Shown one piece after another: positions 1 through 31,067 of a DNA stretch of 64,000 bases. How positions within the stretch are numbered: position 1 is the first letter of the stretch; each line of letters starts with the position of its first letter. Position numbers and translations under genes: made by a program. Origin of the DNA: a phage; sequence record PV467749.1. One strand, 5' to 3'. The notes beneath the pieces were generated by a model, which worked only from the letters and a program-made list of their open reading frames with translations, made no database searches and was not told the origin of the DNA.

Positions 1-622
1 TACTTTGACGACCGATTATGATAGAATTTCGGATTAGAAAATTACTACAGTACTGAAAATCTTTGTAGTACTTGTCAAGGATATATGGCATTATCGCTTC
101 TTTCACTTCTTCATATCCATTTGAACTATCAATTGCAGTACAATAATCTTCTCGGTCTTTATTCCCTCGATGATTATCAAACTCGTACTCAAAGAATAAA
201 TTTTCATTTAATGAATTATTTGAACCAACTGATCCACTATAGTATGATTTTCTATCATTCATTCGATCATCGGGGCATGATGCATACATAGAAATGTCAT
301 GTGTTGACGTACCGATATAAATTTTCTTAGTAATGTGATTGTACGCGATGTAATCATAATCTTGTACTCCAGTGAGCATTAACTGGAACATCAATTCATC
401 AGGAACATCAATCAACGGGTACTCAAACTTCGAATATCTACTACGACAGAAATTCTTTTCAAATGCTCGATATGCGATGAAATCTTTTAGGTTTGTAATA
501 GATTCATGCTCATGTGTATTACTGGTGCGTACATTGACATTAGTAGACGAGCAATACCCTTCAGATTCTTCTGTGTAGTCATAATAACCCTTACTGTAGT
601 CAACGATTAGATAAAGTTTCAT
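1..622 (-). CDS. family A (FQ-motif) paralog, 3' end outside window
   Basis: ORF open to window edge; ATG at 620-622 preceded by GGAG; contains DELMFQLML. Confidence 0.5.
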   Translation of the reverse strand, partial: MKLYLIVDYSKGYYDYTEESEGYCSSTNVNVRTSNTHEHESITNLKDFIAYRAFEKNFCRSRYSKFEYPLIDVPDELMFQLMLTGVQDYDYIAYNHITKKIYIGTSTHDISMYASCPDDRMNDRKSYYSGSVGSNNSLNENLFFEYEFDNHRGNKDREDYCTAIDSSNGYEEVKEAIMPYILDKYYKDFQYCSNFLIRNSIIIGRQS

Positions 623-633
623 ATATCTCCAGA

Positions 634-664
634 CAAAAAAAGGACGAGATATTATATCCCGTCC
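634..664 (-). terminator. intrinsic terminator
   Basis: Hairpin GGACGAGAT..ATCCCGTCC 642-664 next to A-run 634-641 (U-run on minus RNA), just 3' of gene 674-979. Confidence 0.5.
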
Positions 665-673
665 TTTGGTTTA

Positions 674-979
674 TTAGTGGCTTGCCCAGCAGTAAACAGG
701 ACGTAGATTTTCCATTGGGTTTACTTCAGGCTTCAGTACTGTAACACGAACTTCATACGGAGTACCATCTGCATGATGGAACGTTTCGTAATGAATACTC
801 TCAATGAAGGTTTCATATTCTTCTTGAGAACGAGCACGAACTGATGGGGAATATTTCTTTTTGGTATCTGATTTTAGTGTAACACTTACTAGTTCTGATT
901 CTTCACCATTTTCAAGTTTATTGAAATCGAACTCTGGTACACCTTCAAACATATCAAATTTCATTCCGTTGTCTTCCAT
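674..979 (-). CDS. hypothetical protein
   Basis: 101 aa ORF, minus strand, terminator downstream. Confidence 0.5.
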   Translation of the reverse strand: MEDNGMKFDMFEGVPEFDFNKLENGEESELVSVTLKSDTKKKYSPSVRARSQEEYETFIESIHYETFHHADGTPYEVRVTVLKPEVNPMENLRPVYCWASH

Positions 980-1030
980 TTTAAATTCCTTTTTATATAA
1001 TGTTAGTTAGATAGTTTTTAATAAATCAGA

Positions 1031-1417
1031 TTAGATTACGTCATACGGTAGAGTACCGTGACGGAATTTATCAAGTTGTGCAAGAACTTCTTTACGTTCG
1101 ACAATCTCTGGCACATCTTCTTGCAGTTGGTCACATACTTCAACGATGAAATCCCAATCGCTCTCACAACTCACACGTACTGCTTCAATTGTTTTCCAAT
1201 CAGCACTAATTTCACCTTCAGGATTTACATACGAAGGCCATACCTTTCCATAGTCTTGTACTGATTTGTCGTTAAGAACACGAATAGCATTGAAAATCTG
1301 TCCAGTACTGAAGTGTTTAGTATTCTTCATGTCTTCTAAGCAACATAGCTTAGGTTCACCCTGGACTTCAATCAGAAGTACACCACCAATAGCTTTTAGA
1401 ACAGAACTTGTATTCAT
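1031..1417 (-). CDS. hypothetical protein
   Basis: 128 aa ORF, minus strand. Confidence 0.5.
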   Translation of the reverse strand: MNTSSVLKAIGGVLLIEVQGEPKLCCLEDMKNTKHFSTGQIFNAIRVLNDKSVQDYGKVWPSYVNPEGEISADWKTIEAVRVSCESDWDFIVEVCDQLQEDVPEIVERKEVLAQLDKFRHGTLPYDVI

Positions 1418-1488
1418 CTATATCTCCATTTATCAAAAAAAGATGTGAACATTATATCACAAGGAATTGTCATGTCCACAATATTTTA

Positions 1489-1782
1489 TCAAATAGTCAA
1501 ACTTTCGTGCCAGTTATTGAAATCGTTAATAGCCAGCATAAACATATTCTCATCATTAAATTCTAGAATATGTTCATTGTATAAGTAGCTAATGTACTTA
1601 TTACTACAGTGTTTGCTATTCATAATTAGCATTTCAACTGCACGTTCATACGAACATGGGCTGAGATACAATTTTGTTCCATCAGGATGCTCAATCTCCA
1701 CAGCACCAGGTGGAATAAAACGTTCACCAGTATAAGGGATATACGGCTCTGTTTTGAAAATAAGTTTGAATTTAGTATCCAT
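1489..1782 (-). CDS. hypothetical protein
   Basis: 97 aa ORF, minus strand. Confidence 0.45.
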   Translation of the reverse strand: MDTKFKLIFKTEPYIPYTGERFIPPGAVEIEHPDGTKLYLSPCSYERAVEMLIMNSKHCSNKYISYLYNEHILEFNDENMFMLAINDFNNWHESLTI

Positions 1783-1798
1783 ACCAAATCCTCCATAA

Positions 1799-2647
1799 TT
1801 ACATTGTTTCTTTTATGTTGCGTAACATAGTATTAACTATGTTCATCTTCCCGCCCAACTTGAAGTAATATTCCAATTTATTAATAATATTACTTTTTAA
1901 TATCTCAAATATTTGATATTCATTTGTTTTGAAACTAAGTTCGAATTGGAAAGTATATAAATTGTTGAATAGATGTACCAACGATGCATCAGGTGATTCC
2001 ATTGTAAATGTGTAGTTGGCACGATAACCAGTACTAATCACTACATCCGATGTTTCACCATTCATTGATATGTCAATATTATACATCATTGGGCGACCAG
2101 TTGCAATATCTTTCATTCGGAAGAATGCAGTACTACGATACACAACACCATCTTCGGTAACCTGTTCTTGTATAGTGATATTTGAAACTTCACTCTCTTT
2201 GAATTTGGATTCGAATGAATGAATACGATTTGATTTTTCATCATCCGTATACATAGTGCATGTATATTTTCCAAAATCATCTCTAGATGTATAAGATTTA
2301 TCACTGGCGGTTTTATAAAACGAAACTCCATTGATGTGTTCTTCTTTGTACATCATAGTGTCATTGGATTTGTAGTATGAACAATTAGGTGTTGAAAGAG
2401 ATTCAAAATTGTTCACATCATGACAGTAAGAAATAGAAGAATCGCTATACAGTACAACATCACGAATTGCAACTTCTTTTGAAGTACCTTTTTTGACAGA
2501 AATTTGAAAGTCATTGCATGGGAAGATTCTATATCCATCGTATGTATCTGATGTACTGATGCCAAATGGTGTTGGGGAATTCAGAAATTCGTTGATATGT
2601 TCAAGTACTGAATACTTTTTGAAATTACGAAAATCTGTGATATCCAT
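1799..2647 (-). CDS. hypothetical protein
   Basis: 282 aa ORF, longest in this block. Confidence 0.55.
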   Translation of the reverse strand: MDITDFRNFKKYSVLEHINEFLNSPTPFGISTSDTYDGYRIFPCNDFQISVKKGTSKEVAIRDVVLYSDSSISYCHDVNNFESLSTPNCSYYKSNDTMMYKEEHINGVSFYKTASDKSYTSRDDFGKYTCTMYTDDEKSNRIHSFESKFKESEVSNITIQEQVTEDGVVYRSTAFFRMKDIATGRPMMYNIDISMNGETSDVVISTGYRANYTFTMESPDASLVHLFNNLYTFQFELSFKTNEYQIFEILKSNIINKLEYYFKLGGKMNIVNTMLRNIKETM

Positions 2648-3330: not shown

Positions 3331-3831
3331 TTAGGTCACAGCTTTGTATTTCTCCATTGCTTCGGTGATATTCAATACTGCTTGCGGTACGTCACTTTTG
3401 TTGTATGCAATGGTTAGTTTTTCCATGTTATTGAGAAGACTTAGAAACAATGGAAGTACTTCTGCATTGTCACTGAAGTTACAATCATTGACAGTACTCA
3501 ATTGAAATAACTCACCCGCATCAACATTGAGTGTGTTGTATTCTTTAACAATGTTTTCTTCAGTATTGAAGATGTAGAATACAGTCCCCATGTGGTGTAA
3601 GTATACACCAGTTTCATTCTGAATATGACATGGGGTGATTACAATTGCTGTGTTATCAATATTATTTACTATTGTCAAACGCAGACTATGTAACCCAAAG
3701 ATTACAGTACAATCCTTTGTACTGTGTTGGATCTGGTCACTAGTAAAGGAAGACCCACTATGATTTTTAGAACCATTTAGTATTTCTTTGATAATTTTAA
3801 ATGAAATCTTCATCGAATTAGTTAAAAGCAT
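3331..3831 (-). CDS. family A (FQ-motif) paralog
   Basis: 166 aa; motif GELFQLSTV. Confidence 0.55.
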   Translation of the reverse strand: MLLTNSMKISFKIIKEILNGSKNHSGSSFTSDQIQHSTKDCTVIFGLHSLRLTIVNNIDNTAIVITPCHIQNETGVYLHHMGTVFYIFNTEENIVKEYNTLNVDAGELFQLSTVNDCNFSDNAEVLPLFLSLLNNMEKLTIAYNKSDVPQAVLNITEAMEKYKAVT

Positions 3832-4231
3832 GAACTTTACCTTTAAGTAGATTAATTAATGTTCGCATAGATTCAGTACTGACAGTACCAAAATCAACAC
3901 CTAAGCACTCGTATTGAAAGAACTCAATAGAATCAATTGAGTCCAAAGGAATCTCAACAACCTGATTCCCTATACCAGACATAGTAACATTGCTTTTATT
4001 AATCGTCAAGAAGTTTTTTGAATAAGTATTAAATTTTAGTGAAATCGCGTCGGGGTGCTTTGTAACAATGCAGTACTGGGAACCATACACATATAGTACT
4101 TTACTTTCACTAAGATCTGTTTTAAAAAAATGAATCCCATTGAAGTATTTCTCATTGGCTCCCATCGCCGCGATTAGTTCATCTGTTGTTGTTAACCTTG
4201 TTTCGTTCTTCGTTAAACTGTTGAAAAGCAT
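3818..4231 (-). CDS. family A (FQ-motif) paralog
   Basis: 137 aa; motif IEFFQYECL. Confidence 0.5.
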   Translation of the reverse strand: MLFNSLTKNETRLTTTDELIAAMGANEKYFNGIHFFKTDLSESKVLYVYGSQYCIVTKHPDAISLKFNTYSKNFLTINKSNVTMSGIGNQVVEIPLDSIDSIEFFQYECLGVDFGTVSTESMRTLINLLKGKVHAFN

Positions 4232-4652
4232 AGAATACTACCTTAACCATTTGTAGTGTTTCAGACATTACTTCTGATGAAAATTCAACATCATTGAATT
4301 TCAGCATAGTGTTCTGTGTAAAGAAAGTTGCTTCTAAGTCTTCTAGATTGAAGGGTTCATCAAACAAATTAGTACTGAACATGTCAGTCTTCTTCTTGTA
4401 TGTGAACAAGAATTTGGAATTATAACGAAGAACTATTTCATCTTTATTGACCAGAATACGTGCAATGTTCTGACGTGCTAATGTGGTAATGTTTAAATTG
4501 AACACGTTCTTGCGTGTTTCTGTGATATCAACAAAATACCCATCTCCCTGATGGATATTACATCGTACATCCAACCCTTTCTGTACTGTATTGAACAGTG
4601 CATCTTGAATAAAATAATTTGCTGTATCGATGTTTCCTAAAATGTCTAACAT
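4179..4652 (-). CDS. hypothetical protein, divergent family A-like
   Basis: 157 aa; degenerate motif ATFFTQNTM; start may be downstream ATG. Confidence 0.45.
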   Translation of the reverse strand: MLDILGNIDTANYFIQDALFNTVQKGLDVRCNIHQGDGYFVDITETRKNVFNLNITTLARQNIARILVNKDEIVLRYNSKFLFTYKKKTDMFSTNLFDEPFNLEDLEATFFTQNTMLKFNDVEFSSEVMSETLQMVKVVFYAFQQFNEERNKVNNNR

Positions 4653-5164
4653 AACTTCTCCTTGATTGCTGTCATATTTAGAAGAAATTCTTCAAGCAAT
4701 TCCTCTGTAACATACTCAACATACCAGAATATCACAATATCTTTTGAAAGTCGAGTATTCTTAAAAATATCTACTAACTCTTTGTAGTACTCAAGATCAT
4801 ATACATCTTTTATAATTAGTGAGTACTGAAATAGTGATTCTTCAGTTAACTTAAATTCTGGATATAGTAGATCATTAAATTCCTTTGACCCAATTAGGAC
4901 TTTAATTTCTTTAAAATTATTTGTTATACCACCATTGCTTCCATATAACGCCGCATATTCCATGAATTTGGCTTTGGGGTTCCAGTCCAGAACCGTTTCC
5001 CCTTTATATGATAAACGATAGAACGCAGAGAACTTGGTTATTTCCCACGGTTGCTTAATGCCTAATTCATGTATATCAATCCCACTGTACAAAATATCAG
5101 TGAATATCTCACCAATCTTCAATAATAATTTAGTACGTGCTAGTACTGTCATAGGTTCAATCAT
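4646..5164 (-). CDS. family A (FQ-motif) paralog
   Basis: 172 aa; motif EESLFQYSL. Confidence 0.55.
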   Translation of the reverse strand: MIEPMTVLARTKLLLKIGEIFTDILYSGIDIHELGIKQPWEITKFSAFYRLSYKGETVLDWNPKAKFMEYAALYGSNGGITNNFKEIKVLIGSKEFNDLLYPEFKLTEESLFQYSLIIKDVYDLEYYKELVDIFKNTRLSKDIVIFWYVEYVTEELLEEFLLNMTAIKEKLC

Positions 5165-5577
5165 TATACACCTTCATATTCATCAAGGAAATCTTCGATG
5201 ATCATTTCAGCTTCATCCATGTGCATAGCATCAACTTCAACAATGCGAACCTTAGACGTATCCCAAATCATATAGCTAGGAACTGTATCTGGTTCGTAAT
5301 CGTTTTTGTACTGAACTGCATCATAGCCGTTAATTTCGCAGTACTCAATCACTCCACGCCATTCGTCGTCACTGCCCATATCCGTCCACAGAAGCACGTT
5401 ATCAACATCAACTTCTAAGGTATGTAAGTATACTGTATCAGCGTCAACAACGTTCAGTGGGCTTCTCAGCTTGCGTAATGCAGCTTCTAAAGCACTGTGT
5501 TTACCTCCCATATGAAGGCCACCATACGGGATATAAAAGTTATCAATTTTTACAGTACTCGCATGATACAGTTTCAT
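5164..5577 (-). CDS. hypothetical protein
   Basis: 137 aa; no FQ motif. Confidence 0.5.
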   Translation of the reverse strand: MKLYHASTVKIDNFYIPYGGLHMGGKHSALEAALRKLRSPLNVVDADTVYLHTLEVDVDNVLLWTDMGSDDEWRGVIEYCEINGYDAVQYKNDYEPDTVPSYMIWDTSKVRIVEVDAMHMDEAEMIIEDFLDEYEGV

Positions 5578-5586
5578 TATTCATTC

Positions 5587-6171
5587 CTATTTCAGTACTT
5601 TGACCAGGGCTTTAACCGCTGTTTCAAGTTGTGCAAAGTCGTTGATTGTAAGATAATGAATACCCAATGTACTCATTTCTGAATCTATTTTACTATACAA
5701 ATCGAACATGTCAAGTAGATATTGATATGTATATGACTCCGATGACACACATGATTCTTGAAATAGACGTTCTTCCATATCATTTACTACTTCATCATTT
5801 GCGTCTCGAATCACACCATCTTTGTATGTGTAGTAAATCTCATCCCATTCATCTGATAAGCGGAATAGTAAAGGTTTACCATTAAACATCTCAAGGTCAT
5901 ATGCATTGACTTCACTCAATAACATATCATCAGGATCAGGTGTGAAATCGAATTGAGCGAGTGAAGAACCATCATAATCCTTAAGGAATATACCAATAGC
6001 ATTCAATTTAACTTCGCCATAATTGCCATTCTTGAACTTTACACGAATATTAATATCAATGTTTTGAACAGTATCATCATCTTGGAATTGATAATCAATT
6101 TTATACTTTTCCCAAAGTTTTTTAATATCTTTAAAGTACTTAATTTTACTTTCTATTTCTTTAAAGTTCAT
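5587..6171 (-). CDS. family A (FQ-motif) paralog
   Basis: 194 aa; motif EERLFQESC. Confidence 0.55.
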   Translation of the reverse strand: MNFKEIESKIKYFKDIKKLWEKYKIDYQFQDDDTVQNIDINIRVKFKNGNYGEVKLNAIGIFLKDYDGSSLAQFDFTPDPDDMLLSEVNAYDLEMFNGKPLLFRLSDEWDEIYYTYKDGVIRDANDEVVNDMEERLFQESCVSSESYTYQYLLDMFDLYSKIDSEMSTLGIHYLTINDFAQLETAVKALVKVLK

Positions 6172-6799
6172 CTGGAACCGCCATCTCTTGTATGTTCTTG
6201 CATTTTATCATTGCACAATTAGTATGTAAAATGATAGCGTACTTGTGTAATGATTTAATTTTATAACACTCATTAAGTACTGAAATGATGCCCCATAACT
6301 CTTCTACATCAATAGTGATAGGTTCACTAGTACTAAGTTGCATTAGTGCTGCTTCCACATCATCTTTGTTATTGATTTTGAACTGCATACCACGTTTCAG
6401 TATTTTGGTTTTTGGGTTATACTCTGCCATTACATCACCTTCAGGGTAACCCTCGTGTAATAATAATGTAGTCTCATAATCTCCACAATTGAAATTAATT
6501 TCATCATAGTCAGGAACACAAATCATTCCTTCACCATATTGATTATCTACTGATTCGATTGTTAAAATACGCTGATGTTCATTACTCAGGATAATAGAAT
6601 CATGCCAGTACTGCGTAGTGAATTTACTACGTTTCTTTTGACAGCACATACTTGACATGGGACCATACTTTTTATATAGGGACTTCTTGAATGCTATCGC
6701 ATCAGGAGCCACCTTAATAACTTCTCGAATTAGGTCAATAGCTTCTTGATAACTTTTTCTCATTTGTCGTACCCATATAAAATATGATCTAAAGTGCAT
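6161..6799 (-). CDS. hypothetical protein
   Basis: 212 aa; no clear FQ motif. Confidence 0.5.
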   Translation of the reverse strand: MHFRSYFIWVRQMRKSYQEAIDLIREVIKVAPDAIAFKKSLYKKYGPMSSMCCQKKRSKFTTQYWHDSIILSNEHQRILTIESVDNQYGEGMICVPDYDEINFNCGDYETTLLLHEGYPEGDVMAEYNPKTKILKRGMQFKINNKDDVEAALMQLSTSEPITIDVEELWGIISVLNECYKIKSLHKYAIILHTNCAMIKCKNIQEMAVPDEL

Positions 6800-7311
6800 T
6801 GAACTTCTTCATGGAAGAACAGTGGGTAAATTTGTATCAATTTTTCTTTAAGTTCAAGTGAATGACATAATTCTAATGCTTTGATACAATCTTCATATTT
6901 GACTAAATTATGCAATGTACTTAACTGAAAATGTTGTTCTTCAGAGTAAGCTAAATCATATACCAAATTATCATCTAAAAGGTTTGATTTCTTTGAAGGA
7001 TCAAGTACTGTGTTGCTATGACCTACCCAGAAAAAAGCATTGGTGTTCATATTATTACAACCCCAACCTGCCCCCATTTTCTGGTGAATAGCAAAGACAC
7101 AACTATCATAGAGAATAATACCAAGACGCTCTTCGTTGACATAAATCGTAACACCATCGATTGTCATGGTTATTTGGAAACGCATTGAACCTTCACTTCG
7201 TGAACGTGCACAGAAGCCAAGATAACGGTTAATAATTGTATTGATTTTATCTGCCCATCCTTCCACATCTTTGGATGCACATAATTTAAAAAGATCATGA
7301 CTTTGATTCAT
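6760..7311 (-). CDS. family A (FQ-motif) paralog
   Basis: 183 aa; motif EEQHFQLST. Confidence 0.55.
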   Translation of the reverse strand: MNQSHDLFKLCASKDVEGWADKINTIINRYLGFCARSRSEGSMRFQITMTIDGVTIYVNEERLGIILYDSCVFAIHQKMGAGWGCNNMNTNAFFWVGHSNTVLDPSKKSNLLDDNLVYDLAYSEEQHFQLSTLHNLVKYEDCIKALELCHSLELKEKLIQIYPLFFHEEVQCTLDHILYGYDK

Positions 7312-7322
7312 GTAGTTCTCCG

Positions 7323-7904
7323 TTAATCAAGCATAAGTGGCATCATCGCCCATATCTTTTTCATAATCATATCTTCAGTAAAAACAAACGTTTTAGGTGC
7401 AGTATATGATATTGACAACCCAAATGGAAGTACGATTGCATCATCAATTATATTATGAATATCAAACCATGTTTTTACACAATCATATGGTGGAAGTTCA
7501 TGTATTGTACTTAACTGAAAGTATTGTTCTTCACCAAATGTACTGCAATCAATATCACAAATTTTAGTGAATTGATGATTCCATTTAGATATAATACTGT
7601 TTTTATTATTGAACATATTAGTTCTATGCATGAAACCATTTCTGCTAATATGATTTGATATTGCGTTTTCTTCAATATCATTGCTTATTTTAAAATTCAT
7701 GTCAAAGTTGTAGTGCGAACTCGACGATTCTTTGAATTTTAAATGAAAATAACGATTGTTATTAATTTCCATTTCAATACAAAACACATCTGAATCAAAA
7801 CGATTAAACTTGTAATCGTTGTCTTCAGGTAGAGTTTGTAATTTTTTCATAACACCAAGCATAGGGTGCACTAAGCTTCTAATAAAATCATTAGTTATTT
7901 TCAT
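7323..7904 (-). CDS. family A (FQ-motif) paralog
   Basis: 193 aa; motif EEQYFQLST, close relative of 6760-7311. Confidence 0.55.
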   Translation of the reverse strand: MKITNDFIRSLVHPMLGVMKKLQTLPEDNDYKFNRFDSDVFCIEMEINNNRYFHLKFKESSSSHYNFDMNFKISNDIEENAISNHISRNGFMHRTNMFNNKNSIISKWNHQFTKICDIDCSTFGEEQYFQLSTIHELPPYDCVKTWFDIHNIIDDAIVLPFGLSISYTAPKTFVFTEDMIMKKIWAMMPLMLD

Positions 7905-15702: not shown

Positions 15703-15707
15703 GGCAT

Positions 15708-19844: not shown

Positions 19845-19846
19845 TA

Positions 19847-20754: not shown

Positions 20755-20755
20755 A

Positions 20756-22048: not shown

Positions 22049-22210
22049 TATAAGGAGAACGTTTGCGGGGGCGGGGTATTTTTTGTTTCAGGAAACATGA
22101 ACTGTACTCTGTGAACACATTTTAAAACTTTATATTAAACATATACCTTAACATGTTTTTCAGCGAAAATTTTTTTGACCCCCCCAGCGGCCTGTGAAAA
22201 CGAAACGTCT

Positions 22211-22616: not shown

Positions 22617-22770
22617 AATATGTCCTCTGCACAGCGTAGGTGTACTGTGAACTCAGCACCGTTAATAGGTAATCTATGTTGTAAGCACGATTTCCTCGTT
22701 GACTAGCACGGCTAGAATAAAGAATATTATCCACATATGTATCGAACTGTTCTTCAAATAACTCTTTCAT
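22609..22770 (-). CDS. hypothetical small protein (below ORF-track cutoff)
   Basis: 53 aa ORF read by hand (MKELFEEQFDTYVDN...); its stop overlaps the ATG of 22413-22616; weak SD. Confidence 0.3.
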   Translation of the reverse strand: MKELFEEQFDTYVDNILYSSRASQRGNRAYNIDYLLTVLSSQYTYAVQRTYYG

Positions 22771-22779
22771 CAGCACCCT

Positions 22780-23334: not shown

Positions 23335-23344
23335 TGTACTTTCC

Positions 23345-23689
23345 TTACATATTTGTACCGAACAAAACGGAACTTTGAATGCCATTAATCGACACTTCAT
23401 GTACATATATATTTTGTCTGAATACCTGAAGCAATTGAACTAAACTCTGTTGCATAATAATATGCATCGCTAAATTATCAAAGGCCGTTTCGTATTGGAA
23501 TCGTGCAGCTTCATCTTCTATGAAATTCGGAACTTGGACTGGATTTTCAAAATTTGTCCTTGTACTGAACTGTACATCATTGTCCTGTACCTTAATACCA
23601 TATGAATTATCATTGTTATCAACTACATCAAATTCAATTAAACTACCATCTTTACTGACGTTTACTATATAAACTGAAAATCTACTCAT
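23345..23689 (-). CDS. family A (FQ-motif) paralog
   Basis: 114 aa; motif AARFQYET. Confidence 0.5.
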   Translation of the reverse strand: MSRFSVYIVNVSKDGSLIEFDVVDNNDNSYGIKVQDNDVQFSTRTNFENPVQVPNFIEDEAARFQYETAFDNLAMHIIMQQSLVQLLQVFRQNIYVHEVSINGIQSSVLFGTNM

Positions 23690-24204
23690 AATCCTATTTC
23701 CTTTAAATCTTCCAAAAATGTTTCATAATCACTTAAGGAAAAAAAGATATCCGTATCGATGTTCGCATCTAATACATTATACAAATTCTGCATCTGTAAC
23801 ACATCAGGAGCATCAATCAATGATTGCTGGAAATATGCAGCTTCATCTTCTAAAATATCCCTGAATGATCTCTCTCGTACTCTGTGGTGTACTGAATTGA
23901 ATATTGATTTCTCATCCTTAAGCATTGGTAGGTATCGAATGTACATGTGTTCTCTTAGCTCTGGACTGATGGAACCCCTGAACTGTAACACGTATTCGAA
24001 GCACATAACAACATCCTGAAGGTAATTGGCACTGTAATTATTGCTGTAAACAATCTTATGACTTCTGAACTCATCATCATTTCTGAACCAATTGTCACCT
24101 ACTCTGGTGTACTTATGACTAAGCAATCCACCCTCTAACGCTTTGATGATCTTCAAAATGTTGTGTGCAAATGCATATGATGTATTGTACTTGGCCTGAT
24201 ACAT
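23686..24204 (-). CDS. family A (FQ-motif) paralog
   Basis: 172 aa after trimming to ATG at 24202-24204 (GAGG SD); motif AAYFQQSL. Confidence 0.5.
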   Translation of the reverse strand: MYQAKYNTSYAFAHNILKIIKALEGGLLSHKYTRVGDNWFRNDDEFRSHKIVYSNNYSANYLQDVVMCFEYVLQFRGSISPELREHMYIRYLPMLKDEKSIFNSVHHRVRERSFRDILEDEAAYFQQSLIDAPDVLQMQNLYNVLDANIDTDIFFSLSDYETFLEDLKEIGL

Positions 24205-24217
24205 GTGTGCCTCAACC

Positions 24218-24412
24218 TTATCTTGTGTTAAAATATTCACTGAAATGATTATAACACAAAAGCACCACGATGTTAAGCACTCTGTTGTCAAAATCATCTT
24301 GTGATGTAGGATGCAAGGACGCATTGATGTTAAAATTCACTATATCATTGTGGAATTGGTATGTGAACAAATCAAACTTCGTATGCCTTTGTTTGATATC
24401 ATAGGCGGTCAT
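24218..24412 (-). CDS. hypothetical small protein
   Basis: 64 aa ORF between two array members. Confidence 0.4.
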   Translation of the reverse strand: MTAYDIKQRHTKFDLFTYQFHNDIVNFNINASLHPTSQDDFDNRVLNIVVLLCYNHFSEYFNTR

Positions 24413-24413
24413 A

Positions 24414-25022
24414 TTATATATTCAACCCTTTAACAATGGAAATAAATTCTTTGTATACATTTTCAGGTAAAGCTCTACTACCATAAAGAACACTAAATTC
24501 AGGTAACATATCCGAAATCTCTTTCGCTAAATTTATTTCATCCCTGAACATTTGCACAGGCATGATATCCTGTACCAATGATAACTGAAAGAAAAATGAT
24601 TCAATATCTTCATGCACCTCTGAATTTAAATAAATCTCTTCTGGAAACTGGGCTGTACTGTAATAATAAAATACGTCAATTCTTTTTTCATTATTTTGTA
24701 CAAGAGGTAAATTTCTTTCGTCTCTCTTATTAATATTTGTTTTCCATGACTCAATGTTATTCGGAACCCAAAACTCATAAGGTGTCTTCTCTCCTGAAAT
24801 ATTATCCAGCTTCAATCCATAATATTCACTTTCGCCGTACTTTTGCTTCAAAACAATACCTGTACTACTAATGTTTACAATGTACGTATCAACAATCCCT
24901 TCTGTGGTAAAAGGAATATTTAACTCTGAACCTTCAGGGTACTTAGCATTGAATGCATCTAATGCTTTACTTAGCACTGGAATTGCACTTGTACTGTACT
25001 TCATTAATTGGTCTATGTTCAT
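24414..25022 (-). CDS. family A (FQ-motif) paralog
   Basis: 202 aa; motif ESFFFQLSL. Confidence 0.55.
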   Translation of the reverse strand: MNIDQLMKYSTSAIPVLSKALDAFNAKYPEGSELNIPFTTEGIVDTYIVNISSTGIVLKQKYGESEYYGLKLDNISGEKTPYEFWVPNNIESWKTNINKRDERNLPLVQNNEKRIDVFYYYSTAQFPEEIYLNSEVHEDIESFFFQLSLVQDIMPVQMFRDEINLAKEISDMLPEFSVLYGSRALPENVYKEFISIVKGLNI

Positions 25023-25603
25023 TTTAATTCCCCTGTAATCATACTGATATTTGAACGATACATATCGTACACTGTACTTTCTTTCTTGTGCACAATGAAA
25101 TCATAAAGATCAACAAATGCAGGAATAATAATCTTGAATGATTTATTTGGGTACGTCCCAAAATCAACTGTACTCAATTTTGCAACGAGCATAACAACAA
25201 AGATTTCTTCTGGACTATGCAATGTACTGTACTGAAAATATTCCTCAGCACTCATGGCACTTATTGCATTTATATCTTGTGTTTGTAATGTAATATTAAG
25301 ATATTCAAAAATAGAATAAAACTCTGATTTTGTTTGTATTTTGTATTTGTCAATTGGGGTATCTCTCATGAACCATAAACGGTCCTGACCATAAAAAGGA
25401 ATGATTGAATTTGGGGAACCCAAAAAAACTTCTTCTCTATCAATATCCTTTAACTCAATTTGCATACCGGATGAATTGGCAATAATTAATTCATTAAAAA
25501 TGTAATGAACCTTGTGTACAATCTCTTGTACTGAATTGAAATCATCTGGTATTTTAAAATTTTCCATAGGTATCTCCTTAAAAATGATTACACATTGTAC
25601 CAT
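25019..25603 (-). CDS. family A (FQ-motif) paralog
   Basis: 194 aa; motif AEEYFQYST. Confidence 0.55.
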   Translation of the reverse strand: MVQCVIIFKEIPMENFKIPDDFNSVQEIVHKVHYIFNELIIANSSGMQIELKDIDREEVFLGSPNSIIPFYGQDRLWFMRDTPIDKYKIQTKSEFYSIFEYLNITLQTQDINAISAMSAEEYFQYSTLHSPEEIFVVMLVAKLSTVDFGTYPNKSFKIIIPAFVDLYDFIVHKKESTVYDMYRSNISMITGELK

Positions 25604-25640
25604 GCATTTGTACTCGTGTCAAACAAAAAAAGCCCATATC

Positions 25641-26138
25641 TTACGATACAGGCATGTTTATTTGAATTTCATTGTACAAATCATCAATATATAGACATGA
25701 AAACGATAAACTTTCTTTAACTATATTGTTGTGATAAAGCATTTTAAACACTATATAGAAAAATAAATCAATATCATCATGAACTAAATTCTGCTGGAAC
25801 CACCACTCTTCTGTTAAATCTTGTGCATTAAAATCATCAGGAACTTCAATTGACGACATATCAGCATCTTCTTTGTACTCAAACCACATGTCGTCATTTG
25901 GAAAACGTTCATGCTTCTCTGGGTAACAATTGCTGGGATTAAATGCTAAAATATAAAATACCGTCGCAGAATGTTCTTTATTAAAAAATGAATTATTCCA
26001 CACCTGATACCTTTCACCAACATCAAGCTCTTTTGATACTGATGTTATTGCACATAATGTACGATATATTGTTTCTATTTTGTGAACAAATTTAAAGGCT
26101 GCATCTAAACTAAACTCTAAATCAGACATGCGGTGCAT
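25641..26138 (-). CDS. family A (FQ-motif) paralog
   Basis: 165 aa; motif EEWWFQQNL. Confidence 0.55.
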   Translation of the reverse strand: MHRMSDLEFSLDAAFKFVHKIETIYRTLCAITSVSKELDVGERYQVWNNSFFNKEHSATVFYILAFNPSNCYPEKHERFPNDDMWFEYKEDADMSSIEVPDDFNAQDLTEEWWFQQNLVHDDIDLFFYIVFKMLYHNNIVKESLSFSCLYIDDLYNEIQINMPVS

Positions 26139-26458
26139 AAAATTACCTCAACTAAAATAAGAACGGTATTGAATTCGAGGCAACCTTTGATACCTTGATT
26201 GTACATGTACTTTGCTACTACATATTTCTGTACTAAATTATAATTATTAAATTCCTCAAAATTGTAATTTAGAATGAAATTTGTACTCAAAAATAACTTA
26301 TGCATCTCTAATGCACTCTGATAATATTTGTACAACTCACTGATATCAATACTTTGTAAATCACTTTGTTCATATGTATGATAAGGAATGGCGTCAATAT
26401 CAATATTATTAAACCATTCTCTTAACTTATTAATATCAAATGTATTATTCAGCTTCAT
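26117..26458 (-). CDS. hypothetical protein
   Basis: 113 aa; no clear FQ motif. Confidence 0.45.
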   Translation of the reverse strand: MKLNNTFDINKLREWFNNIDIDAIPYHTYEQSDLQSIDISELYKYYQSALEMHKLFLSTNFILNYNFEEFNNYNLVQKYVVAKYMYNQGIKGCLEFNTVLILVEVILCTACLI

Positions 26459-27023
26459 AACTCAATACCTCCATTAAGCACTCATAAACACCATCAATCG
26501 CATAAGCACAAAAACTGAAATTAATTTTGTTATTCTTGTGTAATGGACTATCGTGTACTGTACTCAACATAACACTATAAAACAAAGAACGTTCATGTGT
26601 AAATAATGATTCCTGAAAAAATGCTTCCTCTGATTTAATTTTATTATATTCAATCGATTGATCATTAGAATAAAATGAATCTTGATTTGAATTGTACCAT
26701 GTGTAATCCAAATCATTCTTTGATATAACTGGTGTTGGATTAAACTGTAAAAGACTAATAACACTACGGGCATTTGGGGTATCAGGTGTATTGAATCGTT
26801 TATCAAAATGACTCGTGCACGCAATATGTGAATCAAAATCAGATGGTTTAAACCCCATGAATGCGTTAATGATTCTTGTATATGGTTTTTTATTATGTGC
26901 TGCTTTCTGTACATTATATAAGGCTGCAACAATACAAGCTAACTTTTGTCCCATAAGGATTGCATTAGCGTAGGTGTACTGAATTTCATTGTACTCATTG
27001 CTTTCATTGTACTTCGAGATCAT
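26445..27023 (-). CDS. family A (FQ-motif) paralog
   Basis: 192 aa; motif EEAFFQESL. Confidence 0.55.
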   Translation of the reverse strand: MISKYNESNEYNEIQYTYANAILMGQKLACIVAALYNVQKAAHNKKPYTRIINAFMGFKPSDFDSHIACTSHFDKRFNTPDTPNARSVISLLQFNPTPVISKNDLDYTWYNSNQDSFYSNDQSIEYNKIKSEEAFFQESLFTHERSLFYSVMLSTVHDSPLHKNNKINFSFCAYAIDGVYECLMEVLSYEAE

Positions 27024-27345
27024 GGAACAGCCTCACTTTGCCTAACTCGTCATTGGATATAAATTCGTTAACAGCTTTCTGTATATTCCTTAATAATAGC
27101 ACATCAAATCCTTTTGTGTCAAGCACACATTGCATTTGGAAGAATTCTTCTTCTGATAATGTATTAAAATCCACAAAATTGTCTAATATTACGTCATTAT
27201 CCAAATGTGCCATGTGCCATGTATTTCTTTCGGAGCGTTTAATAAAATTCCATCCATCTGGATAATCGGGTTCTAATTCTACATATATCCCCGATACTGT
27301 ATAAAGCATTTTATATATCATAACTATTGTACTCATTGCTTTCAC
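27004..27345 (-). CDS. family A (FQ-motif) paralog
   Basis: 113 aa; motif LSEEEFFQMQC; close copy of 27342-27653. Confidence 0.6.
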   Translation of the reverse strand: MKAMSTIVMIYKMLYTVSGIYVELEPDYPDGWNFIKRSERNTWHMAHLDNDVILDNFVDFNTLSEEEFFQMQCVLDTKGFDVLLLRNIQKAVNEFISNDELGKVRLFHDLEVQ

Positions 27346-27653
27346 TGTACGTCGATGTCATAATACGCTCCTACCTCATAATCTTTCTTGCTTTGGAATT
27401 CATTAACGACTTTCTGTATATTTCTTAATGTTACCATGTCATGTCCGTACATGTCAACCACCAATTGCATTTGGAAAAATTCTTCTTCAGATAATGTATT
27501 AAAATCTATAAAATAATCCGTAACAACATGTTCGTCTAAATTTGCCATGTACCATTGATTGGTATCGACCTCTTTAACCAAATTCCATGCATCTGGATCG
27601 GATTCTAATTCTACATATATTAATGTTAATGTATACAGCATTTTATACTTCAT
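27342..27653 (-). CDS. family A (FQ-motif) paralog
   Basis: 103 aa; motif LSEEEFFQMQL. Confidence 0.6.
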   Translation of the reverse strand: MKYKMLYTLTLIYVELESDPDAWNLVKEVDTNQWYMANLDEHVVTDYFIDFNTLSEEEFFQMQLVVDMYGHDMVTLRNIQKVVNEFQSKKDYEVGAYYDIDVQ

Positions 27654-28203
27654 AACTATATCCTTGCATTAAAAGAACATAAGCAATATCAACTAATTCT
27701 AAACGAATGAAAAATTTTAAATTATCTTTCAATAGATTCAAATGCATTATACTAAACAACATAAGATACTTCATTTGATTTGTATTGTATATTAGGGATG
27801 TCTGAAATACTTCTGCTTCATTGTAAGGATCAATAAATTTTATACCTTCTTCACTGTAATCCGTTTTGGAATTCTGATATATAAAATAATCATCACCAGC
27901 ATTGTACCACAAATAACCTTCAAAACTAGAATCAAATTCTGAATTTTCATTTCGCATTAAAGGTGATACTGAAATTGGATTTGAACCAACTGTTGCACAA
28001 ACCTCAATGTAAGCATCTTCACTTCCCTTAACTTCCTCTTTGATTTTATCATTGTACTGTCCTGCAAAACCAGCTTTTACTTCCAAATATAAACTACTCC
28101 CAACTTTATTAATTCTTAAAAGGGAACTCTGTACTGTATTCGCATTGTTCAGCACTAACGATATTGTGCAAATCTTATGTACCAATAACTCAATATCATT
28201 CAT
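27643..28203 (-). CDS. family A (FQ-motif) paralog
   Basis: 186 aa; motif AEVFQTSL. Confidence 0.55.
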   Translation of the reverse strand: MNDIELLVHKICTISLVLNNANTVQSSLLRINKVGSSLYLEVKAGFAGQYNDKIKEEVKGSEDAYIEVCATVGSNPISVSPLMRNENSEFDSSFEGYLWYNAGDDYFIYQNSKTDYSEEGIKFIDPYNEAEVFQTSLIYNTNQMKYLMLFSIMHLNLLKDNLKFFIRLELVDIAYVLLMQGYSYEV

Positions 28204-28214
28204 ATTGGTATTCC

Positions 28215-28397
28215 TTAATTTGGTGGATTTGGATGTAATAAACGATCTTGATAATTTAAATGCTCTTGTAATATTGCACTAAGATAATAACTAAAATCAT
28301 TAATTCCACCCTTTAAATGTATATTGTAATACATCTTAATGCTTGTAATCAATGAATTATTTAAATCATCAAATGTTCTTGCTTCATATGATTTCAT
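28215..28397 (-). CDS. hypothetical small protein
   Basis: 60 aa ORF. Confidence 0.35.
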   Translation of the reverse strand: MKSYEARTFDDLNNSLITSIKMYYNIHLKGGINDFSYYLSAILQEHLNYQDRLLHPNPPN

Positions 28398-28536
28398 TAA
28401 AATTCTTCCCTCAAATAACGCTTAATGGCACAATCTAAATAAAAATCATAATACATCATATCTCTATTCTTAACCCATACACAATAATCTGCATTAATAT
28501 TTCTTAATAATATATTCATATTATAATCTTCACACC

Positions 28537-28947
28537 CTAATCGTGCCATTTAATAGGATACTCCGTTCCATTTATTGTATAAGATATAATCCATCCGTAA
28601 TGAATAGGATGATTTTTGTCTGAAACAGGAATAAAATATAAAGATGTACTAGGATTATAACTGAATAAATCGTTGTTACCAATTGTAAAATGTGATAACT
28701 CAATCTTCCTTGTACCTGTACTTGGACGAAGAACATTCTTAACACCGAAGACTGTACCTTGATATTTCTCGGAAAATTCAAACAATGCATCTGCAATTAA
28801 ATCACGAAACTCCGCATGTATGGTTTCAAAAAAATCTATATTACACGATGTTTTAATATCCTTGAACTCCTTATATAAAGAGCTTCTTGTATTCAAAAGA
28901 AATATTACTTTTTTAAGATCCTGAACTATTTCTGGATTCATATTCAT
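28537..28947 (-). CDS. hypothetical protein
   Basis: 136 aa; no family motif. Confidence 0.5.
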   Translation of the reverse strand: MNMNPEIVQDLKKVIFLLNTRSSLYKEFKDIKTSCNIDFFETIHAEFRDLIADALFEFSEKYQGTVFGVKNVLRPSTGTRKIELSHFTIGNNDLFSYNPSTSLYFIPVSDKNHPIHYGWIISYTINGTEYPIKWHD

Positions 28948-29188
28948 TTATCTCATTCTGTAACTTAAGCATCAAAATTTGCATATTAATTTTTTGTACA
29001 AGATGATTGAGAAATTTCTGTACTGTATCTTCTTGTTCTTTTGTACCAAGATAAAATAACATATTAAATTCAGATAATCTCAGAGCGAAATCTTCCTCTC
29101 CCCCTAGTAAACAAAAATCCCTGTACTTTGAAGCATACAAATAAGCATCTATCTTTTTATAATTCACTGTACTTCCTTTCATATGCAT
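28913..29188 (-). CDS. family B (LGTNYQE-motif) small protein, outlier copy
   Basis: 91 aa; motif YLGTKEQEDTV; start probably a downstream ATG. Confidence 0.5.
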   Translation of the reverse strand: MHMKGSTVNYKKIDAYLYASKYRDFCLLGGEEDFALRLSEFNMLFYLGTKEQEDTVQKFLNHLVQKINMQILMLKLQNEINEYESRNSSGS

Positions 29189-29199
29189 TAGGTATCTCC

Positions 29200-29511
29200 T
29201 TATATATTGACATGTTTTGTTATCCCTGCTGTACCTTGTATTAAATTATCATACATATCGAGCATCACTTTTTGAATACTAATTAATACTGGCATCGTGC
29301 AAATATCAATGTCGTATATTAAGCTGTACTGGAATAATTCCTCTTCCTGCATTTGTACTAAATTAGGTAAAAGATAATTGTCTGCCTCTTCATCCTGGTA
29401 CTTGAAATGCATAACACCATCCTTTTTGTACAAAAGAATGTCAATATCACCTAACTCTTCTGCATAACCAAAAATACATATACTCGATGTTTTTGCTATA
29501 TTAAATTTCAT
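29200..29511 (-). CDS. family A (FQ-motif) paralog
   Basis: 103 aa; motif EEELFQYSL. Confidence 0.55.
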   Translation of the reverse strand: MKFNIAKTSSICIFGYAEELGDIDILLYKKDGVMHFKYQDEEADNYLLPNLVQMQEEELFQYSLIYDIDICTMPVLISIQKVMLDMYDNLIQGTAGITKHVNI

Positions 29512-29520
29512 ATTCTTCTC

Positions 29521-29871
29521 TTATATGTAGAATTCACATACGCGTTGAACAAAATTCTTTGGAAGATGACAATGTGCAATCATCTGCTTTTGTACTTCCT
29601 TCATGTCTTCGAATGTAAATCCTAAAGAATCATCATGTACTAACAAGTACTGAAACTCTTCTTCTTCAGAGATAGAACATAAATTCGGTACTGAAATTGT
29701 TTTTGCTTTTCTTGCACCCAATTTCCAATGAAAAGAATTATTGCATTTTCTGTACTCAAATATCTTCAACCCAGAACCTGTATTAAAATCAGCTACTACA
29801 ATGTAACATGAATTCTTACGTACAATACAATTGAACTTACGCATTATCTCCACCTCTCTCCGTCTGTACAA
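29521..29871 (-). CDS. family A (FQ-motif) paralog
   Basis: 116 aa; motif EEEEFQYLL. Confidence 0.55.
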   Translation of the reverse strand: MYRRREVEIMRKFNCIVRKNSCYIVVADFNTGSGLKIFEYRKCNNSFHWKLGARKAKTISVPNLCSISEEEEFQYLLVHDDSLGFTFEDMKEVQKQMIAHCHLPKNFVQRVCEFYI

Positions 29872-30089
29872 GAGTACTGGTACGTTGTCGTTAGGGTAGG
29901 GACCATGTTTGTAATGGGCATATTATTAACAATAACGGTAACAGGCATAAGAATCGTCTCTTCTCTACTCTGTCCTGTCCTTGTGCAATTCATCTTTTGC
30001 ATTTCATCGGACTCCATGAAATACAATACAAATGGTGCAATCCCAAGAACAATACACAAGACGATAAGGAAATTTAAAAAATTCAACAT
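29844..30089 (-). CDS. small membrane protein
   Basis: 81 aa; hydrophobic N-terminal stretch FLIVLCIVLGIAPFVLYF; own promoter upstream. Confidence 0.45.
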   Translation of the reverse strand: MLNFLNFLIVLCIVLGIAPFVLYFMESDEMQKMNCTRTGQSREETILMPVTVIVNNMPITNMVPTLTTTYQYSCTDGERWR

Positions 30090-30118
30090 AATTTTTACCC
30101 CATGATTAACGTACAGGT

Positions 30119-30147
30119 ACTATATCAGTAATGAAAAGTACTGTCAA
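30119..30147 (-). promoter_or_regulatory. sigma70-like promoter
   Basis: Minus-strand TTGACA, 17 bp spacer, TATAGT, upstream of 29844-30089. Confidence 0.45.
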
Positions 30148-30153
30148 GTACTG

Positions 30154-30369
30154 TCATTTGCATTTGGACTTTATTTGACACATCAACCCCCAAATTAAAT
30201 ATCGAACACTATCAGCTTGATAGTTTGTTCCTACTGTGTGTTTTAAGATTAACTCATCTTTCAGTACTGAACATTCTGCATTAGATATAGGAAGAGAATT
30301 AATTCTTTTAATTTCTGGTTGTAAAGTCCTGATAAGATTGGTGTAATCTTTGTATGATAATCTTTTCAT
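30154..30369 (-). CDS. family B (LGTNYQE-motif) small protein
   Basis: 71 aa; motif VGTNYQADSV. Confidence 0.5.
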   Translation of the reverse strand: MKRLSYKDYTNLIRTLQPEIKRINSLPISNAECSVLKDELILKHTVGTNYQADSVRYLIWGLMCQIKSKCK

Positions 30370-30372
30370 TGT

Positions 30373-30714
30373 TCAGTACTCAACGATGTGTTCTTCATAA
30401 CCATTAAACTCCGGTTTAGTTTCTTTCATTAGGACTACCATTTTATGTACTAATGGCATAGGAAATTCTAAATCCCATACTAATGATTCTTGAAAGTATT
30501 CTTCTTCAGATAAAGTACTTAAATCTTTAATATCAACGTGCTTGTATATTTTATTTTCGTAATTAAGAAATGATATATATAAATCATTAACATAAGAATC
30601 ATAAGTAATTGTGAATGGCTTACCCTTGTAGTCCATTACATCTTTACATAGACTGCATTTGATATATGTATGTTCTTCTGAACTGTATACATTGAGTTGT
30701 ATATTAGTTTTCAT
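30373..30714 (-). CDS. family A (FQ-motif) paralog
   Basis: 113 aa; motif DLSTLSEEEYFQESLVWDLEFPMPLVHKM, near-identical to next gene. Confidence 0.6.
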   Translation of the reverse strand: MKTNIQLNVYSSEEHTYIKCSLCKDVMDYKGKPFTITYDSYVNDLYISFLNYENKIYKHVDIKDLSTLSEEEYFQESLVWDLEFPMPLVHKMVVLMKETKPEFNGYEEHIVEY

Positions 30715-30728
30715 AGTTACCTTATATA

Positions 30729-31067
30729 TTAATACTCAATAATGTGATCTTCATAACCATTAGGTACAGGCTTAGTTTCTTTTATTAGTACTATCATCTT
30801 ATGTACTAATGGCATAGGAAACTCCAAATCCCATACTAATGATTCTTGAAAGTATTCCTCTTCAGATAAAGTACTTAAATCTTCAATGTCAATGTGTTCG
30901 TACATGTTATATTTGTAATCAGCAAAAGATATATAAAAACCTCTTGTATTATCATAAGTAAGTGCAAATGGCTTACCTTTGTAGTCCATTACAGAGTTAC
31001 ATGTATGGCATTTGATGTATGTACTTGCAAATGATTTATATACCTTGAGTTTTATATTAGTTTTCAT
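30729..31067 (-). CDS. family A (FQ-motif) paralog
   Basis: 112 aa; same motif as 30373-30714. Confidence 0.6.
   Translation of the reverse strand: MKTNIKLKVYKSFASTYIKCHTCNSVMDYKGKPFALTYDNTRGFYISFADYKYNMYEHIDIEDLSTLSEEEYFQESLVWDLEFPMPLVHKMIVLIKETKPVPNGYEDHIIEY

Follow-up and report, generated by a model that had tools for sequence, protein, structure and literature searches.

The window analysed here is a stretch of 64,000 nt of phage DNA (sequence record PV467749.1), and the question it raises is why one phage should carry, head to tail on one strand, some fifty small genes sharing a short acidic-aromatic motif, and what their products do. When window 5000–25000 was searched with megablast it showed 98% identity to Escherichia phage fEgEco12 and 95.9–98.0% to WPEC3, CMSTMSU and others, all of them Asteriusvirus (Rak2-like E. 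coli) jumbo phages of 350–385 kb. Nearly all open reading frames (ORFs) of the window are located on the minus strand from position 1 to ~57 kb, and the GC content is 31–35% up to ~36 kb and 37–40% beyond (a step from ~0.32 to ~0.38). The array, here named family A, consists of 51 candidate ORFs of 103–212 amino acids (aa; median 162) between 3331 and 31067, with ~12 small non-family genes scattered among them. The coding density of this region is 96.8%, and 44 of the 62 junctions overlap (ATGA was found in ten junctions and one shared base in five). An initial annotation, made from the sequence alone, had placed ~48 paralogues at 1–31067; the array exists and the count was fair, while the start lies at 3331, the ORFs at 674–3288 being no members and the first 3.3 kb consisting of five other genes.

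Alignment and profile analysis of the array

Alignment of the 51 ORFs with MAFFT placed the motif, with the consensus [ST]-E-E-x-[YLF]-F-Q-x-S-[LT]-[VIL], in a single block of columns. The two glutamates are present in 40 and 29 of the 51 sequences, the phenylalanine in 49, the glutamine in 47 and the serine in 35, followed by [LT][VIL] and, a few residues later, an aspartate. The internal motif described in the initial annotation is thus conserved in position, with an exact FQ in the motif column of 45 ORFs. The distance from FQ to the C-terminus is 40–72 aa (median 51) whatever the length of the protein, which places the length variation in the N-terminal part. A strict version of the pattern, [ED][EDA]xxFQx[ST], is found in 28 of the 51 members, is absent from all the remaining 223 six-frame ORFs of the window and averages 0.05 in residue-shuffled members.

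Membership was assessed with leave-one-out (LOO) hidden Markov models (HMMs), in which the tested sequence is excluded from the profile and support is taken as E<0.01. This supported 41 of the 51 ORFs, often across most of their length, and the full HMM separates the members from all other ORFs of the window (best non-member E 0.014). BLASTP at E<1e-3 links 14 ORFs into a "long" and 13 into a "short" group, joins two further pairs and leaves 20 singletons. As judged from these comparisons, family A is a single paralogous family of extreme divergence.

For the ten weak ORFs hhalign gave probabilities below 10%, which is not significant, with most of them aligning at the motif columns. Seven have a colinear positional orthologue in the related phage A4 with FQ at the matching position, mostly in a canonical motif, and since these orthologues keep FQ, the seven are regarded as members in which the motif has decayed in this lineage; two of the orthologues, those of 8394..8822 and 11696..12238, are strong HMM matches (Table 1). 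In 23345..23689 FQ is kept in place and the LOO E-value is borderline, and the membership of 4179..4652 and 9971..10534 is tentative.

Database searches and structure prediction

Searches with all 51 members against Pfam, NCBIfam, PADLOC and the sequences of the PDB gave no meaningful match, and for known defence and anti-defence families (Pfam, PADLOC, NCBIfam) the best E-values were 0.003–0.009, for single members only. PHROGs divides family A over ~40 families with no named function (phrog_12674, phrog_13866, phrog_9317, phrog_15629 and ~36 others), which contain the same proteins from 121Q, PBECO4 and RaK2-type phages, the unifying motif and fold being unrecorded there. GenBank records label the proteins hypothetical, and the literature on Asteriusvirus and Rak2-like phages, together with jumbo-phage reviews, leaves the family undescribed, with general remarks on paralogues and tandem duplication only. 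The initial annotation had not recognised the family, and no profile search assigned its members to unrelated known families. The note "Phi92_gp213" on one orthologue in phage ph0011 was treated as an annotation artefact, as tblastn found no match in phi92.

Structure prediction with AlphaFold, as proposed in the initial annotation, was run on two members and gave the same architecture for both, a compact alpha+beta domain in which the motif forms an ordered helix. The long member 18935..19378, modelled with the 51 paralogues as alignment (predicted local distance difference test, pLDDT, 85.8; predicted template modelling score, pTM, 0.80), shows an N-terminal helix, six strands, a short helix at residues 100–106 (EEYYFQN), a helix at 112–126, a strand and a terminal helix. 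In the short member 30373..30714 (37 short sequences as alignment; pLDDT 84.7, pTM 0.77) five strands are followed by a helix at 70–79 (EEEYFQESLV), a helix at 86–98 and a closing strand. The 10-residue blocks holding the motif reach pLDDT 94–97 in both models and lie within the best-predicted region. The common fold, as modelled, is a five- to six-stranded antiparallel sheet followed by the short motif helix, a longer helix and a closing strand, with an extra helix at each terminus in the long members.

A fold search of the PDB gave no match for the predicted fold. Foldseek against viral models returned uncharacterised proteins of 121Q, SP27, RaK2 and GAP32 only, with weaker matches in the Serratia phage BF and Yersinia phage Yen9-04, and Pfam, PDB and BFVD gave no matches outside Rak2-like phages. 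Polo boxes, which are protein or peptide binding modules, are likewise antiparallel beta sheets packed by a helix and of similar size, but the polo-box-like match scores below the homology threshold, with 6–8% identity over 63–66 aligned residues, and leaves the second helix and the closing strand of family A unmatched.

Within the motif the variable positions x3 and x7 are spaced i, i+4 and share one helix face, a spacing which suggests that the conserved residues point inward. The S/T that precedes EE, like the S-x-x-D that follows Q, resembles a helix N-cap. The proteins are acidic (median isoelectric point 4.9, 49 of 51 below 7), and no transmembrane segment was found in any true coding part of the members.

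Occurrence and divergence in related phages

An exhaustive HMMER search over 1.84 billion representatives gave 126 clusters at E≤1e-3, of 65–213 aa except for one, the top match P0027 (1455 aa), which is spurious, being a tandem-repeat protein that scores through 18 short stretches. Nearly all of the 125 genuine remote representatives carry [ST]EExxFQxS[TL][VIL], and about half of the clusters are <50% identical to any member in four Asteriusviruses. Twenty remote clusters were traced, to the divergent Asteriusviruses EJP2 and JNE01, to the Klebsiella phages RaK2, K64-1 and Muenster and, for the rest, to metagenome contigs.

The 51 copies of the window compare with HMM counts of 48 in ph0011, 49 in 121Q and 43 in A4, and EJP2 carries ~35 motif-bearing genes. 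RaK2 harbours a syntenic array (ORF412–439) of ~25 genes with the motif, 18 of them at HMM E<1e-3, and downstream of it the same single-copy genes are found, followed by Dam, cytidylyltransferase, RnlA and PseT. What had been described as an expansion in one genome is instead a conserved array, colinear and similarly sized throughout the genus, and extends to Klebsiella phage RaK2; the copy number, which the initial annotation wished to see compared, does vary between relatives, but modestly. Family A is, on comparison of these genomes, an old, lineage-specific expansion in Rak2-like jumbo phages.

When the window is compared with ph0011 and 121Q the genes pair one to one and in order. Against 121Q the ratio of nonsynonymous to synonymous substitution rates (dN/dS), also put forward as a check, is below 1 everywhere (0.04–0.52, median 0.24), and dS is very uneven (0.1–2.9), which suggests a recombination mosaic. 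Colinear positional orthologues in A4 are 33% identical (median, n=40), whereas the non-family genes between and beside them reach 71% (n=32), so that family A, by this measure, evolves much faster than its neighbours while apparently keeping fold and motif. Identity to A4 rises to 97% in 19847..20287 and to 89% in its neighbour 20284..20754, against ~30% in most other members, and this patch (19847..20754, minus strand) is likely the result of a recent recombination or exchange. The best BLAST partner of a member is often a neighbour (median rank distance 5, compared with ~17 if random), and the pairs 30373/30729 and 27004/27342, which have one counterpart each in 121Q and ph0011, appear to be recent tandem duplicates.

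Many near-identical homologues are recorded as proteins of Escherichia coli, on contigs of 347–357 kb, and whole Asteriusvirus genomes are therefore present in bacterial isolate assemblies, a situation described in two recent papers on lytic phages inside such assemblies.

Terminal repeat and putative promoters

For fEgEco12, restriction-verified direct terminal repeats of 20,993 bp have been described (PMC13070987), and by coordinate mapping this repeat corresponds to roughly window 37–58 kb. Going inward from the genome end on one strand, the repeat is followed by a second small-gene family (~30 genes) and then, a few kb from the repeat, by family A (from 31 to 3.3 kb). GC skew and gene strand switch near window 57–58 kb, and the window assembly seems to run through the physical genome end.

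Sites with at least 11 of the 12 positions of the sigma-70 consensus were found 43 times on the coding strand and twice on the opposite strand in six phages, as motif evidence only, and it is by such near-consensus sites only that the strand bias is shown. In the window several of these putative promoters occupy the few gaps between genes, and two follow a terminator-like hairpin (Table 1). Genome descriptions report a phage-encoded sigma factor and do not mention a phage RNA polymerase (PMC11895373, PMC7247149), which points to dependence on the host RNA polymerase.

Downstream of the array, genes of counter-defence type (Dam, cytidylyltransferase, RnlA and PseT) are found in all relatives. 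A distant metagenomic relative with a similar head-to-tail array (L004, Logan ERR12379741 contig) carries just downstream of it a 347-aa gene with a Pfam Gad2 domain (anti-Gabija; L004 18359–19402) and a Dam methylase.

Possible function of the family A proteins

Family A may have diversified into a set of proteins that act early and in the cytoplasm as binders or inhibitors, a function that we infer and to which we give an even chance. The host RNA polymerase would transcribe the array early from the sigma-70-type promoters, the products would remain unpackaged in the cytoplasm, and each paralogue would bind or inhibit a different target of the host or of a rival element on a common scaffold. 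A structural role, that of holding the helix hairpin against the sheet, would fall to the near-invariant F and Q together with the N-capping S/T-E-E and the S-[LT]-[VIL]-x-D, and the remaining surface would be free for rapid change. The diversified effector, anti-defence or host-range set envisaged in the initial annotation is consistent with, and not proven by, the adjacency to the terminal repeat, the promoter bias, the acidic and soluble nature of the proteins, their fast evolution and the counter-defence-type genes downstream, and no homology ties the members to defence or host range. A toxicity screen of Asteriusvirus genes was not found in the searched literature.

Several points speak against such a set of early binders. 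No member matches a known anti-defence, toxin, regulator or host-takeover family in sequence or fold, promoter-like sites at all score levels are not commoner than in shuffled sequence, and the searched literature held no Asteriusvirus transcriptome, so that early timing rests on promoter motifs and genome position. The burial of F and Q is likewise deduced from residue spacing, and the near-invariant glutamine, unusual as a purely structural residue, could mark a shared functional site. Fast divergence, finally, could equally be explained by weak constraint.

An expansion under weak constraint is considered unlikely. Its members would serve the development of the phage itself, as modulators or chaperones acting on phage enzymes or as DNA or nucleoid mimics; or else the copies would be largely redundant, persisting through tandem duplication and playing no part in conflict with the host. 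Neighbours that are often best BLAST partners and the two recent duplicates indicate that duplication is ongoing, the motif is lost in some members, divergence is fast and the acidic composition would suit nucleic-acid mimicry, but the copy number is stable (43–51) and one-for-one colinear retention across the genus at the dN/dS values given above is not expected of redundant copies. The main rival, in our view an unlikely one, reads the motif as an exposed EE-x-x-FQ-x-S helix by which ~50 paralogues dock on one hub, either a host machine (RNA polymerase, protease, chaperone) or a conserved phage protein, with the variable sheet selecting the cargo and the family acting as interchangeable adaptors. 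F and Q are indeed the most durable residues, kept across genera while the rest drops to 20–35% identity; acidic and polar residues such as the conserved E, E, Q, S and D typically line interaction surfaces; the conserved block always lies near the C-terminus with the variable part N-terminal; and the product of the well conserved single-copy gene embedded in the array of every relative (5164..5577) could be the partner. Both models are, however, single compact domains with no tail in which the motif helix is integrated and most confidently predicted, and the conserved residues occupy more than one helix face, as in a packed helix. The more specific proposal of a modular adaptor system, where the FQ helix docks all members on a shared hub while the fast-evolving sheet recruits different targets, is regarded as quite unlikely.

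Two further readings concern the fate of the proteins. Other jumbo phages have head-internal proteins that form paralogous families, and family A could by this comparison be virion-internal or ejected, like the inner-body and ejection paralogue families of phiKZ-type phages, which we find very improbable. The phage phAPEC6 does have an inner body (PMC7247149), yet its virion proteome, determined by electrospray ionisation tandem mass spectrometry, comprises 62 proteins with a gap from gp347 to gp549: none of the 62 falls in gp348–gp548, where the family A member gp442c belongs, and no family A member is among them. The array is moreover set apart from the structural modules, in an AT-rich region where the genes are small and the promoters of the sigma-70 type. 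The virion-protein reading was rejected on the published proteome, in line with the initial annotation, which had suggested that the array was not a structural module. Proteases of the TEV (tobacco etch virus) and 3C type recognise ENLYFQ↓G/S and LFQ↓GP, and near-perfect TEV-like sites occur in 13456..13938 (TEEMYFQGS) and 17730..18185 (TEEGYFQGS); that the motif is a proteolytic site, cut after Q to free a C-terminal fragment of ~50 aa, nevertheless has hardly any credibility. Such proteases need an extended, accessible strand, while the motif is an ordered helix of top confidence in both models, many different residues (Y, E, L, Q, N, M, G) can follow Q, and the conserved hydrophobic pattern that comes next belongs to the fold. 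The only protease in the phAPEC6 virion proteome is the prohead core scaffold and protease gp227c (beyond it, the genes read were those of the window and of the array regions in relatives, and no whole genome was scanned for a 3C-like protease), and this enzyme would, by analogy with T4 gp21, cleave after Glu. The TEV-site reading was rejected on the predicted structure.

Other genes in and around the array

The embedded non-family gene 5164..5577 is 90–91% identical within the genus and 56–58% identical to its counterparts in RaK2 and EJP2; its label in ph0011, "putative ADP-ribosyl transferase", found no support in Pfam, PHROGs and PDB searches. The second tandem family, between the terminal repeat and family A (window 31057–37005, minus strand), comprises ~30 proteins of 63–94 aa with the motif L-G-T-[ND]-[YF]-Q-E ~47 residues from the N-terminus, shows far higher conservation in A4 than family A does (53–95% identity) and has copies inside the array (16845..17036, 17014..17241, 28913..29188 and 30154..30369, minus strand). 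The gene 29844..30089 (minus strand), also inside the array, encodes an 81-aa protein with a hydrophobic N-terminal stretch (LNFLIVLCIVLGIAPFVLYF), is 85–95% conserved within the genus and probably specifies a small membrane protein.

Just after the array the 282-aa non-family gene 1799..2647 (minus strand) contains NNLYTFQFELS 50 aa from its C-terminus, and its RaK2 homologue, ORF441, contains NTLYTFQSELL. In hhalign this segment aligns to the motif columns of family A, not significantly (E 0.08), and the gene may be a remote relative of the family. Nested ORFs in other frames (13982..14248, 19906..20151, 26564..26932 and 2113..2331, minus strand) lie inside real genes and are not considered genes, since they show an apparent dN/dS >1 (1.1–3.1) where orthologues exist.

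Table 1. Features of the family A array in the window, with the motif segment of each member and E-values of the LOO HMM (n.s., not significant).
Position	Strand	Feature	Length (aa)	Motif	LOO E	Remarks
3331..31067	-	whole family A array				51 family ORFs and ~12 non-family small genes
3331..3831	-	member	166	DAGELFQLSTV	9e-6
3818..4231	-	weak member	137	DSIEFFQYECL	0.6	A4 orthologue LDGDLFQYECI, HMM E 4e-4
4179..4652	-	tentative member	157	LEATFFTQNTM	0.23	no FQ; hhalign not significant
4646..5164	-	member	172	TEESLFQYSLI	1e-6
5164..5577	-	embedded non-family single-copy gene	137			in array of every relative
5587..6171	-	member	194	MEERLFQESCV	7e-6
6161..6799	-	degenerate member	212	VEAALMQLSTS	0.84	A4 orthologue CKGALFQMGVI
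6760..7311	-	member	183	SEEQHFQLSTL	1.7e-3	hhalign probability 74%
7323..7904	-	member	193	GEEQYFQLSTI	2.7e-6
7891..8397	-	weak member	168	IEENEFQNNTL	0.08	A4 orthologue IDEVEFQNSTV
8394..8822	-	degenerate member	142	IDSLALQYGVL	0.55	A4 orthologue DEATIFQLSTL, HMM E 1.5e-9
8822..9400	-	member	192	VDEELFQMSTV	2.4e-8
9387..9971	-	weak member	194	REAYIFQRSVL	0.089	A4 orthologue REAYLFQLSLL
9971..10534	-	tentative member	187	YDVLLFNANLI	0.026	no FQ; BLASTP E 3.7e-4 to neighbour 9387..9971
10562..10623	-	terminator-like hairpin (10623..10604), then 11/12 promoter (10590..10562)				87-bp gap
10622..11206	-	member	194	TDEVQFQLSTI	3.7e-6	longest ORF (TTG); true start probably internal
11133..11699	-	member	188	LESVMFQHMLI	6.7e-6
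11696..12238	-	degenerate member	180	lost	n.s.	A4 orthologue LDETLFQYSLI, HMM E 2.7e-7
12222..12716	-	member (long)	164	SEESYFQNSLI	6e-11	BLASTP cluster
12704..13117	-	member	137	TPDELFQYSLV	1e-4
13101..13463	-	member (short)	120	SEEELFQESTV	1e-9
13456..13938	-	member (long)	160	TEEMYFQGSCI	2.6e-12
13935..14414	-	member (long)	159	SEEEFFQYSTL	7e-14
14448..14477	-	perfect sigma-70 consensus promoter (TTGACA-18-TATAAT, TG extended)				59-bp gap before 13935..14414
14474..15064	-	member (long)	196	NEENYFQQSLL	1e-12	longest ORF
15015..15353	-	member (short)	112	DTGELFQESLV	1.6e-3	hhalign probability 97%
15343..15702	-	member (short)	119	QEDELFQESLV	2.4e-7
15708..16310	-	degenerate member	200	DEDAMFTNDIT	n.s.	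A4 orthologue STDVAFQQDLI
16301..16897	-	member (long)	198	TEENIFQNSLM	2.5e-9
17210..17743	-	member	177	FEEQCFQLSCT	8.8e-3
17730..18185	-	member (long)	151	TEEGYFQGSTV	8.5e-15
18151..18624	-	member (long)	157	SEDAYFQYSTI	3e-10
18624..18938	-	member (short)	104	HESFIFQESLV	1.8e-4
18935..19378	-	member (long)	147	SEEYYFQNSTL	6e-19	modelled
19356..19844	-	member (long)	162	SEEYYFQNSTV	7e-15
19847..20287	-	member (long)	146	TEEYYFQQSLI	2e-16
20284..20754	-	member (long)	156	SEEFYFQQNTI	3e-10
20938..21282	-	member (short)	114	GEAEIFQESLI	2.5e-12
21282..21638	-	member (short)	118	DAAELFQAALV	8e-14
21635..22048	-	member (short)	137	DDAALFQESLV	1.5e-9	longest ORF
22780..23406	-	member	208	SEEMLFQYKTV	7e-6
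23345..23689	-	weak member	114	DEAARFQYETA	0.019
23686..24324	-	member (long)	212	DEAAYFQQSLI	1.6e-8	longest ORF; true start probably Met40, downstream of promoter 24276..24248
24248..24276	-	11/12 promoter with TG				upstream of probable true start of 23686..24324
24414..25022	-	member	202	IESFFFQLSLV	2e-4
25019..25603	-	member	194	SAEEYFQYSTL	2.6e-7
25594..25653	-	terminator-like hairpin (25653..25632), then 11/12 promoter (25622..25594)				in gap
25641..26138	-	member	165	TEEWWFQQNLV	1e-6
26445..27023	-	member (long)	192	SEEAFFQESLF	5e-7	no reciprocal best hit in ph0011 locus
27004..27345	-	member (short)	113	SEEEFFQMQCV		tandem duplicate of 27342..27653 (58% identity)
27342..27653	-	member (short)	103	SEEEFFQMQLV
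27643..28203	-	member (long)	186	NEAEVFQTSLI	1e-9
29200..29511	-	member (short)	103	QEEELFQYSLI	2e-10
29521..29871	-	member (short)	116	SEEEEFQYLLV	7.5e-8
30119..30147	-	11/12 promoter with TG				gap 30089–30154
30373..30714	-	member (short)	113	SEEEYFQESLV	2.6e-13	modelled; apparent recent tandem duplicate of 30729..31067 (71% identity)
30729..31067	-	member (short)	112	SEEEYFQESLV	1e-13	first gene of array in transcription order
5164..5577, 17014..17241, 26117..26458, 28537..28947, 29844..30089		examples of interspersed non-family genes

Comparison with other viral gene families

The terminal-redundancy host-takeover module of SPO1 and the pre-early genes of T5 are likewise unidirectional blocks of many small genes that lie within or adjoin a long direct terminal repeat; their promoters are strong and of host type (for family A, on motif evidence) and their products non-structural. 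These blocks differ in consisting of unrelated small genes and not of ~50 copies of one fold, with no similarity to family A in sequence or fold, and early timing and host shut-off have been shown for SPO1 and T5 while the timing of family A is deduced from motifs and position. The MGF360/505 multigene families of African swine fever virus (ASFV) and the ankyrin/PRANC and BTB-kelch families of poxviruses likewise consist of paralogues that lie in tandem close to an end of the genome, diverge fast and differ in number from strain to strain, combining a short conserved module with a variable body. No homology connects them with family A, in which copy-number variation is small (43–51 within the genus), and their role in host range or immune evasion is documented whereas that of family A is a guess. 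Bacillus phage G carries a ~35-copy zinc ribbon expansion, called "unprecedented" in a survey of 224 jumbo phages that does not mention family A (PMC7824862). In both cases a small, functionally uncharacterised domain of a jumbo phage has expanded into a large single family, but family A has another fold without Zn ligands, is larger (~50 copies), forms one contiguous array and, unlike the phage G case, is conserved across at least two genera. Family A resembles the SPO1 and T5 blocks and the multigene families of eukaryotic viruses and is a member of none of them.

For annotators the motif HMM provides a handle that merges ~40 separate PHROG families, and the near-perfect TEV sites in several members matter when these proteins are expressed with TEV-cleavable tags. 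About 7% of the genes of this phage, with a genome of 350–375 kb, belong to one family which is unnamed in databases and whose predicted fold has no solved match, in a group of phages under characterisation as therapy candidates. Should the adaptor reading be true, the family would be a phage counterpart of the poxvirus ankyrin/F-box or ASFV multigene families, with a fold unseen in solved structures, and would rank among the largest expansions of a single family recorded for cultured phages. If they act as inhibitors, the members would constitute a ready-made library of about fifty binders on one scaffold. Copy-for-copy retention into Klebsiella phages combined with fast change is the pattern expected of proteins engaging variable host targets, and the array offers a defined place in which to seek new host-takeover or counter-defence activities.

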